The position numbers are program-made. From IMG/VR virus record IMGVR_UViG_2839610755_000005: DNA of 43,830 bases. One strand, 5' to 3'. This document shows positions 24,001 through 27,000 of this stretch, in pieces (position 1 is the first letter of the stretch; the number at the start of each line of letters is the position of its first letter). The DNA is from a virus (Duplodnaviria > Heunggongvirae > Uroviricota > Caudoviricetes).

Positions 24001-27000
24001 GAAGGTCGCGAATCTCCAGCGGGTCGAGCAGCTTTGTGTTGTGGGAAATAGCCAGGGCAGTAACAGCAGGCAGTTCTTCAGCTCGTGCGATATGTAATGC
24101 CTGAAGTTCTTCCCGTGAAACGTGCGTTACCGGTTTTTCGCTGCCATGTTGCGCAAGCCAGCGAATGGGCAGTTCCTGACCGGAAATCGGCAGGAGCATA
24201 TTATCCTCAATCTCAGCCATGTCTTCGCCATTGACGTTGGTATTGTCAGTGCTGGCTGGTTTGTCCTGAACTGAGGGGGAAGGCGCTATAAATATCATTG
24301 TGATGCCATCTTCTCCGCCTTTTTCATAGCGGTTGCAGAATTCAGTATCGAACACACCTTCAGGCGGCAGGTCATTAACAATGGGCAAATTCACGCGAAC
24401 AGGTTTTTTGAAATCCTCTTCGTCAAATCCAGCATCGTCCATTGCGACAACACCCCGTGATATTGCAACCGATAATTTTTTTGCTGTGCGCCAGTAAAAA
24501 CCGCCTTTAATCCCAAGGCGTTTTCTGACTTTGTCATTTTTGGCTTCGTAATACAGTGCAATTTCTTCTTTATCAGTGCTCATTGATAAACCTCATAACT
24601 ATTTTAAGGTTGTACGAATCCCTGCTATTGCTGGCATGCTTAATCAACGGGTATGGCGTTAATACGGCTGGCGGGTTATCCAGCCGGTATTTCGTTATTC
24701 AGGTACAGCGATACTTTGTTTAACGGGAGACATTCACCGGAAATTTTTTGCTCGTCTCTTGCCTGATGGCAGGATTCTTTACTGGCATAAATTCCGGTAA
24801 TCACATTCTGTGGCTCACCTGTTATAAGAAAAACCGTCATCATCAGTGCAAACGCTGAACTCACTGCTGCCCTCCGAAAATGCCAAGTTCAAGAAGGGCA
24901 ATTCTGGAGAGTATGGAATTATCATTGAGAAGATAAGGCTCATATTTTCTCATCCTGATGGCGTCTTCAGTAAACTCCCGGTTACTGAGCAGAATACCAA
25001 TATTAAAACACCCTTCAGACGTATTAACGTTTGGTAGTGACGTTTCCATTATCGCGTCCTCAACAATGAATTTTGTGATGCGGTGCCTGGTGCCTCCAGG
25101 TGACGTTAACCAGTTAACAATTAACGCCGGATACAGAGAATCCACCCATAACACTGTTTTTGGTTTTAACTGTTCCGCGTGCGCTCAGCCGCATTCACCA
25201 CATCACAAAATTCACTTTAAAAAGGGCGGCAGAGCAGTCACGGAGTAAAACTGATACCGCCAAACGTCACCAGAAAATTGATAACAGAGGGCGTTGCAGC
25301 GGGGTTGTCACTTAAGCGTATGGTCAGCCTGACAACCCGGTGTCCTCAAGGGGAAGGAATAACCCCGCCATACTTACCGCCGCGCCATTTCGCGGATTGC
25401 CACAACCAGAAGCGCACGGTCGAAGAAATTTAACGGCAAGACTTATATGCAAAGGGATCTCGCCGTGCGCTTTCGTGTTATGCCCTGACTTTTCAGGGTA
25501 AATTAACCTGTGGAAACCTGTTTTTACTGGCGCTAATCAGTTAGCGTTTCTGGCTAACCAGCGATGCGCGGCAGCTTCGGTTTTAAACGTTTTACTTTTG
25601 GTATACGTCATCGCGGTAAACGTGCCGTCCTGATTGGGAAACACGCCACATACCAGAGATTCGTTGTTGCCAAGATTGAGCGTATCCATGTTGACCTCAT
25701 TTGCCCTTAACGCCGGGGGGGGCGGAACTAAGACCTGTCGCACCGTTGTGCTTTGATGGGATATATTGTTCTCTTAAGATGAACATATGTCAACATTGTG
25801 AATGCGCAAGAGGCAAAAAAAACCGCCTTCCGGCGGTATTGTTTTGTAAAATAAAGAATTATTTTTGTCGCGTTATTGGGTCAACGTATTCTGAGTAAAA
25901 TTCGGTCAGTTTTTGAAGGCGCATTTGAAAAGCTGCCAGCATATTTCTACGCTCTACAGGTGGCAGGTTTCTGTAAACATCAAGCAGGGCTTTCTCATCA
26001 TCATCAAGCGCCTCTCTGTTTGTATCTTCTTTTCCTGTCAGTAGCCAGGAAAGGGAAACATTTGTCGCTTCTGCAATTTTGGCTGCGGAATCTTTACTGA
26101 TTGTCCCTCTTTTTTTCCAGGCGTTGACTGATGAGCGTCCTACACCAGCGATGCGCGCTAAATCTGAACCGCTTAAATGATGCTGTTGCGAGATCGTATC
26201 TAACCTTTCTGCCAGCGGGGTGTCGTATTGCTTTTTTCTCATGTCCATTTAGCAATTATAACCGTTCAGTGAACACTAACAATTCCTCGTAGTGTTGACT
26301 TATGTTCTCTTTAAGTGAACAATGTTGTGGCTGATTGAATTGGAGGTTGTATGACAGCATTGGACAAGGCAATAAAGATTGCTGGTGGTATTCGTCCGCT
26401 AGGGCGTGCAATAGGGGCTTGGCCGTCTCAAATACACAAATGGGCAAATGAATACAATGGTCGAGTGCCGACAGGGGAGCGGGTTCGTCAAATTTATATT
26501 GCAACTGGGGTGACTCCTCATGAATTGCGACCAGATTTATATCCGAATCCAACCGACGGGTTGCCTGCTGGAGATAAGGCTAACACACAAAATACACCGG
26601 AGTTGATTCATGAAAATCAAGCATGAACACATCCGCATGGCGATGAATGCCTGGGCGCGTCCTGATGGCGAAAAAGTTCCAGCAGCTGGAATAACCCAGG
26701 CTTATTTTGAGTTGGGTATGACGTTCCCAGAACTGTATGACGACAGCCATCCGGAAGCCCTGGCTCGCAATACCCAGAAAATTTTCCGCTGGGTAGAGAA
26801 AGACACCCCTGATGCTGTTGAAAAAATGCAGGCTCTGTTACCGGCGATCGAAAAGGCGATGCCGCCTTTGCTGGTGGCCCGTATGCGCAGCCACAGTTCT
26901 GAATATTACCGTGAGATCGTCGAACGGAGGGATCGGCTGGTGAAGGATGTCGATGATTTTGTTGCGTCAGCGGTTGTTTTGTATGACCAGATGAATCGCG

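Follow-up and report, generated by a model that had tools for sequence, protein, structure and literature searches.

The 43,830-nucleotide stretch of DNA analysed here (the window) carries the immunity region of a Rac/Qin-like lambdoid prophage from E. coli O157:H7. In this region a repressor gene (25859-26248, minus strand; ORF call of 129 aa) and a Cro-like gene (26351-26626, plus strand; 91 aa) diverge across a gap at 26249-26350. The gap size of 102 bp given in the initial annotation was confirmed, the ATG of the repressor being at 26248 and that of the Cro-like gene at 26351. PGAP places the repressor start at the second ATG, 26242, which gives a protein of 127 aa. Matches of the repressor to Pfam Phage_CI_repr/HTH_3 are confined to residues 15-75, and the protein falls in PHROG transcriptional repressor families. 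It had been described as an XRE-type repressor without a peptidase domain, and this holds: the HTH domain is the only one found with Pfam, with neither an S24 peptidase domain nor a Ser/Lys catalytic module. In the AlphaFold2 model (pLDDT 83.5) a 5-helix HTH domain forms the N-terminal part and is joined by a linker to a hairpin of two helices at the C-terminus. BLASTP gave a weak relationship to K-12 DicA (26% identity over 110 columns covering the HTH and the C-terminal LPxxE helix, E=5e-7). The features of the short non-cleavable repressor class (about 130-150 aa, HTH domain, no S24 domain) are present in the 129-aa protein.

The Cro-like protein belongs to the YdaS family (Pfam YdaS_toxin, E=7e-10; PHROG 35) and is 30% identical to K-12 YdaS. 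The box of YdaT, a CII analogue, covers the ydaT start codon (TTGATTCATGAAAATCAA, 26603-26620); it lies at the ydaS/ydaT junction and is the one perfect match to TTGATT-N6-AATCAA in the whole window. This site has been footprinted in CP-933P (PMC9986795) and Rac (PMC11879457). YdaT of the window aligned to PDB 8bt1 with E=1e-88 and about 5 differences in 140 residues. On the other side, an intrinsic terminator 3' of the repressor gene (25822-25837, minus strand; terminator scan) separates this gene from a PL-like promoter; the terminator is kept across genera, with compensatory loop changes. The leftward operon comprises a DUF1391 gene, DicF (Rfam match, 76.7 bits), dicB, a DUF1482 gene and an exonuclease gene, in the order given by PGAP for the identical FRIK944 locus. 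Of 5426 complete E. coli genomes, 82 carry this immunity type; the entries listed at ≥99% identity belong for the most part to O157:H7. Strain 180-PT54 has the same flanking genes with a LexA-family repressor cassette in place of the present one.

Promoter scan of 25500-26700 gave three promoter-like sites, all coinciding with the operator/promoter elements of the immunity region. Two of them are opposed within the 102-bp gap and, together with the ORFs and the Pfam/PHROG assignments, bear out the earlier view of the gap as a divergent repressor/Cro operator region. The PR-like promoter of the Cro-like gene (26295-26323, plus strand) consists of TTGACT, 17 nt and AACAAT. Its spacer between -35 and -10 is filled by a 19-bp dyad that overlaps the -10 and matches at 6 of 7 dyad positions, the predicted main right operator O_R (TGTTCTC-TTTAA-GTGAACA, 26303-26321). 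The mirror image lies on the far side of the repressor gene, where the PL-like promoter (25765-25793, minus strand; TTGACA, 17 nt, AACAAT) holds in its spacer a second 19-bp dyad, the predicted left operator O_L (TGTTCTC-TTAAG-ATGAACA, 25767-25785). A 31-nt inverted repeat with 84% complementarity encloses both O_R and O_L.

The exact pattern TGTTC-N9-GAACA occurs twice in 43.8 kb, at O_R and O_L, against an expectation of 0.08, and none of 100 shuffles reached two. Among 2000 shuffles of the 102-bp gap, 0.8% had at least the observed count of 5-N9-5 dyads. An unbiased search for the best 19-mer common to the gap and the region 3' of the repressor gene gave 13 of 14 matching outer positions, a value reached in 1 of 500 shuffles. 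Searches with up to 3 mismatches gave extra copies scattered in host DNA and late genes, none of them at a promoter. A tandem three-operator array as in lambda, P22 and 434 is absent from the locus, and one full dyad is present at each early promoter. An overlapping dyad, ACTTA-N9-TAAGT (26298-26316), was dropped as it is not conserved. A search for the operator strings found no paper containing them in the literature library that could be searched. The real operators at this locus are predicted to be the 19-bp TGTTC-N9-GAACA sites at the two early promoters.

To follow these elements among relatives, E. coli variants (88-100% identical) were compared with homologues from Salmonella, Klebsiella and Lelliottia, whose repressors are 78-81% identical. 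The half-sites of O_R are invariant and its centre is variable in 7 E. coli variants and the 3 other genera. TGTTGAC and GAACAAT of the PR-like promoter are also invariant across genera. O_L is conserved across genera as well, its half-sites being constant and its centre variable like those of O_R. At 13 of 13 homologous loci the rightward -35 lies 46-47 bp from the repressor start, with the first base of the dyad 8 bp on from that of the -35. Two copies on opposite strands, about 530 bp apart, were present in 21 of the 32 viral contigs that matched the promoter-plus-operator pattern. Half-site GTGAACA pairs with W(K/R)KR in the helix-3 region of the repressor, GCTAACA (GCTCACA in L018) with W(Y/H/F)KR, and GCTCAAT with SPTSVTNW. 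Helix 3 of Cro co-varies with operator type as well (PSQIHKW versus PSSL(N/S)(K/R)W); since the recognition helix of the Cro-like protein changes with the operator, this protein probably recognises those half-sites too. The table of half-sites against recognition helices amounts to a modest natural data set for the study of HTH specificity.

The repressor gene has a PRM-like promoter of its own (26255-26282, minus strand; TTGTTA, 16 nt, TATAAT; 10 of 12 positions by promoter scan). Over its -10-to-spacer part lies a one-sided candidate operator, O_M (TATAACC-GTTCA-GTGAACA, 26257-26275), at 46 bp from O_R centre to centre. The right half of O_M equals that of O_R at 7 of 7 positions; its left half is the -10 of the promoter and matches the consensus at 3 of 7 positions, and conservation of this half could be explained by the -10 alone. 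Four genera keep TATAACC and CAGTGAACAC unchanged, the O_M centre varies (GTT, TCT, ACT, TCG), and GCAATTATAACC of the PRM-like promoter is invariant across genera. In homologues whose half-sites differ, the O_M position is taken by a full dyad. The viral-contig scan returned E. coli-type copies and one Salmonella-type copy only, with no further lineages that bear on O_M. A second operator in this part of the gap, CGTTC-N9-TAACA (26263-26281), looked plausible in E. coli and was rejected, neither half being kept in Salmonella, Klebsiella or Lelliottia. The PRM-like -10 stops 6 nt short of the ATG at 26248, from which the repressor mRNA is predicted to be leaderless. This is probably the case; a Shine-Dalgarno sequence is absent before both repressor ATGs, and the analogous paaR2 mRNA is leaderless by experiment (PMC8630535).

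The initial annotation had placed candidate operator half-sites in a set of nested repeats, and all of the strings that it named are present: the 11-bp palindrome GTTCAgTGAAC at 26264-26274, the inverted pair AACACT (26272-26277) and AGTGTT (26291-26296), and GTGAACA at 26269-26275 and 26315-26321. When homologous immunity regions were compared, GTGAACA was upheld as a predicted operator half-site, being invariant in four genera and common to the rightward operator, the leftward operator and O_M; the copy at 26315 is the right half of the O_R dyad. The palindrome and the AACACT/AGTGTT pair did not pass this comparison. The left arm GTTC of the palindrome is TCTC in Salmonella, ACTC in Klebsiella and TCGC in Lelliottia with the operators unchanged, A26291 of the pair is G in 5 of 5 diverged E. 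coli variants, and the pair is missing in the other genera. Neither the left half of O_R nor any of the leftward operator/promoter had been noticed.

It is very improbable that these units (palindrome, inverted pair and GTGAACA copy) are themselves the operators bound by the repressor. The palindrome does sit within the spacer of the PRM-like promoter, 26249-26290 hardly varies across all E. coli copies, and the stretch with the named strings is invariant in every E. coli copy examined; the nested palindrome may be functional within E. coli. Against these units as operators, none of the features, taken singly, exceeds chance when compared with 2000 dinucleotide-preserving shuffles of the AT-rich 102 bp: a 5+1+5 palindrome arose in 12.7% of them, an equal number of 6-bp inverted pairs with any gap in 19%, and an 8-mer direct repeat in 7%. 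The left arm of the palindrome and the AGTGTT arm are lost where the 19-bp operators are identical, and the half-sites of the palindrome are 1 base apart, compared with 9 bases between the 5-bp cores in the two clear sites. The palindrome is made up of the O_M centre and part of the O_M right half, its left arm being kept within E. coli only. Judged from sequence comparison, the palindrome and the AACACT/AGTGTT pair are not binding units; they arise as by-products of O_M and of the sequence adjacent to the -35. A role of the repeats in RNA structure was set aside, as they are upstream of the predicted starts of both transcripts from the gap, and no fold is possible for a 5-bp stem closed by a 1-nt loop.

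The co-variation of Cro helix 3 with operator type would also be expected if the dyads served chiefly the Cro-like (YdaS-family) protein or some other factor, with the 129-aa protein acting elsewhere or indirectly, and YdaS footprints both promoters in CP-933P (PMC8630535). This is very improbable, however, as the helix-3 region of the repressor co-varies with the operator too, and lambda, P22, DicA, RacR and PaaR2 all share operators between repressor and Cro. Since operators are shared in every characterised relative, such an explanation overlaps with repressor binding at O_R and O_L rather than replacing it. That the 31-nt inverted repeat is merely a duplicated promoter, from common ancestry or recombination homogenisation, with a dyad that binds no protein, is very improbable: the shared block takes in the -35 and -10 hexamers and lambdoid early regions are mosaic, as the LexA-family cassette of 180-PT54 illustrates, but spacers are normally unconserved whereas here the dyad-symmetric positions alone are kept with the centre free, the bases at these positions differ from clade to clade along with the recognition helices of the repressor and Cro, and the same half-site occurs again at O_M, outside the duplicated block.

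We consider it likely that the region is the immunity switch of the lambdoid (Rac/Qin-like) O157:H7 prophage, with O_R, O_L and O_M as the predicted operators of the repressor. A repressor dimer on O_R would block RNA polymerase at the rightward promoter, which would drive the Cro-like gene, ydaT and the replication genes. A dimer on O_L would block the leftward promoter and with it the DUF1391 gene, the DicF small RNA, dicB and the recombination genes. O_M would be a weaker site, at which excess repressor or the Cro-like protein would shut the repressor's promoter. There is precedent for such an arrangement in the DicA operator Oc, TTGTTAG-N6-CTAACAA, which has a similar dyad layout (PMC3441716), and in CP-933P, where PaaR2 and YdaS footprint both divergent promoters and regulate the leftward promoter (PMC8630535). 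In these terms the locus is an ordinary lambda-style genetic switch. The presence of one full dyad per promoter, against three in tandem in lambda, counts against the switch model and leaves cooperativity and bistability unexplained.

A more elaborate version, which we regard as unlikely, would have a single full operator at each early promoter and a hemi-operator at O_M, where the -10 of the repressor's promoter takes the place of a half-site. Stable repression would then rest on oligomers formed through the conserved C-terminal hairpin, with O_L looped to O_R/O_M over 536 bp. Induction would follow when an antirepressor pried the hairpin apart, in the manner of SinI and SinR, and GTTCAgTGAAC in E. 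coli could be an extra site of short spacing for the Cro-like protein. The antirepressor in this version may be the product of a tail-region Ant gene or a factor from another O157 prophage.

Because the repressor has no peptidase domain, induction of the switch most likely needs a protein antirepressor or instability of the repressor, as with DicA and the Gifsy repressors, and not RecA-stimulated self-cleavage. The initial annotation had presumed that the repressor is not RecA-cleaved, and the literature on its class is consistent with this: work on DicA points the same way (bioRxiv 10.1101/2023.04.14.536235), Gifsy repressors are not cleaved on SOS induction (PMC3121763), and of the O157 Sakai prophages with repressors that lack a peptidase domain, three (Sp6, Sp9 and Sp10) cannot be induced with mitomycin C (PMC2669165). 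The window yielded no antirepressor, nor a homologue of the antirepressor Rem by tblastn with K-12 Rem. CTGT-N8-ACAG has a single match, at 19804 in host DNA outside the prophage. The best LexA 20-mer match (35677) is inside a methyltransferase ORF, and the sole good CTG-N10-CAG site is also in the methyltransferase gene. In FRIK944 the same prophage carries, outside the window, a P22-type Ant gene (WP_001416667.1) and two Arc-family regulators. A LexA-boxed dinI-like gene is present at the far end of the prophage, outside the window, and is followed by no antirepressor ORF.

Among known systems, DicA/DicC of Qin in K-12 is alike in its repressor, a short HTH protein that has a helix at the C-terminus and lacks a cleavage site, and in the divergent arrangement of repressor and Cro-like genes. 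There too a leftward promoter 3' of the repressor gene drives ydfA (DUF1391), DicF and dicB. By our own reading of the sequence, the K-12 dicB promoter has a related dyad between -35 and -10. The half-site is GAACA here and CTAACA there, and the dyad here is 1 bp longer (19 bp versus an 18-bp core). The repressors are only 26% identical, the Cro-like protein here is of the YdaS family and unrelated to DicC, and a Rem homologue is lacking. CP-933P (Sp12), with PaaR2-YdaS-YdaT, shares the O157:H7 host, divergent promoters in a gap of about 100 bp, a matching leftward promoter, a YdaS-type Cro, a near-identical YdaT and an identical TTGATT-N6-AATCAA box. PaaR2 is also without a peptidase domain, and the leaderless mRNA predicted here has been shown for paaR2 (PMC8630535, PMC9986795). 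Unlike the TGTTC/GAACA sites of the present locus, the CP-933P operators follow the consensus GTTTAGTAA in four evenly spaced 18-bp repeats. Moreover, paaR2 is co-transcribed with the paaA2-parE2 toxin-antitoxin genes, whereas here the repressor gene is followed by a terminator and then the leftward promoter. The PDB sequence matches of the repressor include no PaaR2-like chain.

Rac (RacR/YdaS/YdaT) resembles the present locus in gene order, in the YdaS and YdaT families, in the YdaT box at the ydaT start codon (PMC11879457) and in the DUF1391 gene on the left. It differs in the RacR operators, (T/A)TAGGC-n3-GCCTA(T/A) (PMC9638921), and RacR resembles the repressor across about 28 HTH residues only. 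Gifsy-1, -2 and -3, with repressors GfoR, GtgR and GfhR and LexA-controlled antirepressors, share the short non-cleavable class of lambdoid repressor, to which DicA, RacR and many E. coli prophage repressors were assigned by Lemire et al. (PMC3121763). In Gifsy, the antirepressor gene is part of a dinI-antirepressor-irsA operon, whereas no antirepressor ORF comes after the dinI-like gene here. With lambda CI/Cro the locus has in common a repressor gene flanked by a leftward and a rightward promoter, operators that overlap promoters and, by prediction, autoregulation at the promoter of the repressor gene and a leaderless repressor mRNA. It departs from lambda (OR1-3, OL1-3) in having one full dyad per promoter, 46 bp between O_M and O_R, and no S24 peptidase domain. 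The best full-length fold match of the AlphaFold2 model is SinR of Bacillus subtilis (1b0n_A, Foldseek E=3e-4), a structural analogy with a TM-score of 0.41-0.50 and no sequence relationship. The likeness lies in an HTH domain that leads into a helical hairpin at the C-terminus, which in SinR is the target of a small antirepressor.

The immunity specificity is new and the repressor class is already known (DicA, Gifsy GfoR, CP-933P PaaR2); nothing here goes conceptually beyond the paradigms of DicA, Gifsy and CP-933P. What is gained is a predicted operator sequence for one uncharacterised immunity type, and with O_R, O_L and O_M in hand clean reporter, EMSA and immunity-typing experiments become possible. 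The repressor would gate the DicF/dicB cell-division-inhibitor operon along with the prophage early genes. The prophage also carries DUF1076-family genes, which we take to be NleG-type effectors.

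All the strings that the initial annotation proposed as operator half-sites are present in the 102-bp gap (26249-26350) between the repressor and Cro-like genes: GTTCAgTGAAC at 26264-26274, AACACT at 26272-26277 pairing with AGTGTT at 26291-26296, and GTGAACA at 26269 and 26315. Their chance level was estimated from 2000 dinucleotide-preserving shuffles of the gap. A 5+1+5 palindrome arose in 12.7% of the shuffles, the count of 6-bp inverted pairs was matched by 19%, and an 8-mer direct repeat was seen in 7%; none of these is unusual. Judged by conservation in homologous immunity regions, the annotation's own criterion for refutation, GTGAACA holds up and the other two of the three repeats do not. 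The left arm of the palindrome, GTTCAG, is replaced by TCTCAG, ACTCAG or TCGCAG in other genera, and in the AGTGTT arm, absent from other genera, A26291 is already G in diverged E. coli copies. The feature is real and the gap probably an operator region; its first description was incomplete and partly wrong.

The 19-bp dyad TGTTCTC-TTTAA-GTGAACA (right operator O_R, 26303-26321) has the GTGAACA at 26315 as its right half. A second dyad, TGTTCTC-TTAAG-ATGAACA (left operator O_L, 25767-25785), is located beyond the repressor gene, and both are part of a 31-nt inverted repeat with 84% complementarity. Exact TGTTC-N9-GAACA occurs in the window only at O_R and O_L (two observed, 0.08 expected), and two were reached in 0 of 100 shuffles. 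When the gap was searched without bias for the 19-mer best matched downstream of the repressor gene, the same pair was obtained; its two members agree at 13 of 14 outer positions, a score equalled by 1 of 500 shuffles. A promoter consensus scan of 25500-26700 gave three promoter-like sites, each coinciding with an operator element. At the rightward promoter (TTGACT / 17 nt / AACAAT, 26295-26323, plus strand) O_R fills the spacer and overlaps the -10 element. The leftward promoter (TTGACA / 17 nt / AACAAT, 25793-25765, minus strand) is its mirror image, with O_L in the same relative place. A terminator scan located an intrinsic terminator at 25822-25837, between the repressor gene and the leftward promoter.

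This immunity type was found in 82 of 5426 complete E. coli genomes. Seven E. coli variants (88-100% identical) differ in the centres of O_R and O_L but have constant half-sites. Loci from Salmonella, Klebsiella aerogenes and Lelliottia (L027, L032 and L009), whose repressors are 78-81% identical, all carry TGTTCT(C/T)-N5-GTGAACA at both early promoters. The following blocks of the gap do not vary between the four genera: GCAATTATAACC (the repressor promoter's -10), CAGTGAACAC, TGTTGAC (the rightward -35), GTTC, GTGAACAATTG and the Cro-like gene's Shine-Dalgarno sequence. They do not include the left arm of the palindrome. Another exact 5-N9-5 dyad, ACTTA-N9-TAAGT (26298-26316), interleaved with O_R at a 5-bp offset, is unconserved in the variants and in other genera and is probably a chance match. 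In the Lelliottia and Klebsiella loci a further GTGAAC half-site, part of AGTTAGTGAACTGGAG, follows the right half of O_R at a distance of ~21 bp, just upstream of the Shine-Dalgarno sequence that precedes the Cro-like gene; the window reads TTGAAT at this position (about 26336-26341).

The third promoter is the repressor's own (TTGTTA / 16 nt / TATAAT, 26282-26255, minus strand). The best reading of the conserved CAGTGAACAC is that it forms the right half of the 19-bp site TATAACC-NNNCA-GTGAACA (O_M, 26257-26275), whose left half is the -10 of this promoter; the site spans the promoter from the -10 through the spacer and stops 1 bp short of the -35. Where homologues use other half-sites, a good full dyad stands at this place (for example TGTAAGC-CACTG-GCTAACA in L035 and ATTAAAC-CAAAA-GTTTATT in L016); the operator position is therefore characteristic of the family. 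O_M is one-sided in the window's clade, its left half matching the dyad at 3 of 7 positions, much as some repeats of CP-933P are also without one half-site (PMC8630535). The perfect -10 ends 6 nt before the ATG at 26248, and no Shine-Dalgarno sequence was found before either candidate repressor ATG; the repressor mRNA is therefore probably leaderless. The lambda cI mRNA has been shown to be leaderless. The same has been shown for paaR2 of CP-933P (PMC8630535).

The wider family was sampled at 18 genome loci and 11 contig loci. At the 13 loci tabulated, the rightward -35 lies 46-47 bp from the repressor start and the 7-5-7 dyad starts 8 bp past the start of this -35. The half-site changes with the helix-3 region of the repressor: (G/S)RSSVNAW(K/R)KR is found with GTGAACA, SRSSVNAW(Y/H)KR with GCTAACA, SRSSVNGWFKR with GCTAACA (GCTCACA in L018), SPTSVTNWFKR with GCTCAAT, and SPQSVNNWF (L013, L016) with GTTTA. 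The Cro-like protein co-varies too, PSQIHKW occurring with GTGAACA and PSSL(N/S)(K/R)W with GCT-type sites. Such co-variation is the signature expected of an immunity cassette in which both proteins would read the same operators. In a pattern scan of viral contigs, 21 of 32 matches had the promoter-plus-operator pair on opposite strands, ~530 bp apart.

The window is 100% identical to part of the E. coli O157:H7 FRIK944 chromosome and is a lambdoid prophage from ~20.7 kb onwards; its left half (1-20700) is host chromosome. In the PGAP annotation of the identical FRIK944 locus, an IS3-family transposase fragment and an OmpW fragment directly precede the integrase gene (20718-21848, minus strand). 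The integrase gene is followed by those for excisionase, exonuclease, DUF1482, dicB, DUF1391 and, on the minus strand, the 129-aa repressor (25859-26248), in which Phage_CI_repr/HTH_3 (residues 15-75) is the only Pfam match. On the plus strand come the 91-aa Cro-like gene of the YdaS family (26351-26626), a gene of the YdaT family (CII analogue), and genes with HTH_36/DnaD_N and IstB/DnaA-type ATPase domains, which suggest replication functions. A full-length DicF small RNA (25224-25275, minus strand; Rfam RF00039, 76.7 bits, gathering score 48) sits between the DUF1391 gene and dicB, inside the operator-controlled leftward operon. Since DicF and then dicB lie to the left of O_L, O_L would control an operon of the dicBF type, comparable to the one governed by DicA in Qin. 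This O157 prophage thus carries a second cell-division-inhibitor module of the dicBF type, whose repressor is not DicA.

The modules flanking the repressor/Cro cassette are common to other prophages. The window's YdaT differs from the crystallised CP-933P YdaT (8bt1) at about 5 of 140 residues (E=1e-88), and the YdaT box spanning the ydaT start codon, TTGATTCATGAAAATCAA (26603-26620), matches without mismatch the TTGATT-N6-AATCAA box footprinted in CP-933P (PMC9986795) and Rac (PMC11879457); the cassette is therefore spliced onto a conserved ydaT module. The E. coli O157 180-PT54 locus (NZ_CP015832.1 2190785-2193175) has the same DUF1391 and ydaT flanks, a different Cro and, in place of the window's type, a 214-aa cleavable repressor of the LexA family; it illustrates cleanly how immunity cassettes are swapped between O157 prophages. 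K-12 DicA and the window repressor are 26% identical over a stretch that takes in the HTH and the C-terminal LPxxE helix. The DicA operator Oc, TTGTTAGTTATGACTAACAA, is a dyad of comparable layout with a different half-site and 1 bp less spacing; DicA bound Oc only (PMC3441716), which fits a design with few operators. The RacR operators, TAGGC-n3-GCCTA, are unrelated (PMC9638921), and the likeness of RacR to the window repressor is confined to the HTH. In the AlphaFold2 model of the repressor (pLDDT 83.5), a linker joins a five-helix HTH domain to a two-helix hairpin; the hairpin sequence, LPPxERRNMLAAFQMRL, shows the strongest conservation in the family. The model's best full-length fold match, SinR of the SinR/SinI complex (E=3e-4, TM 0.41-0.50), may serve as a lead. 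The operator strings have no occurrence in the searchable literature, and the specific sites therefore appear undescribed there; they represent a new specificity, while the kind of switch is well described and its principle is not new.

Published work on repressors of this class is in line with the suggestion that the one in the window is not RecA-cleaved. DicA is without an Ala-Gly cleavage site and has Rem as antagonist (bioRxiv 10.1101/2023.04.14.536235), Gifsy repressors lose their activity through antirepressors under LexA control (PMC3121763), and the O157 Sakai prophages Sp4, Sp6, Sp9 and Sp10 have repressors without a peptidase domain, with mitomycin C not inducing Sp6, Sp9 and Sp10 (PMC2669165). 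No antirepressor, Rem homologue or promoter-located LexA box was found in the window. The best LexA-box-like 20-mer there, CACTGTAAAAATATCCAGTT (35677-35696), has 5 mismatches to the consensus, falls just inside the start of a DNA methyltransferase ORF (35669-36727) and is probably a chance match. Outside the window, the FRIK944 prophage (L039) carries a P22 immI-like module inserted between tail genes (L039 25224-26819), with a gene for a 307-aa P22-type Ant antirepressor and two Arc-family regulator genes; this module is a candidate inducer for the peptidase-less repressor. At the prophage end, also outside the window, a canonical LexA box, CTGTACATAACTACAG, lies ahead of a DinI-like gene (L039 16190-16482). 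Behind this gene there is no antirepressor ORF, unlike in the dinI-antirepressor-irsA operon of Gifsy. The DinI-like gene is adjoined by DUF1076-family genes, which we take to encode NleG-type effectors.
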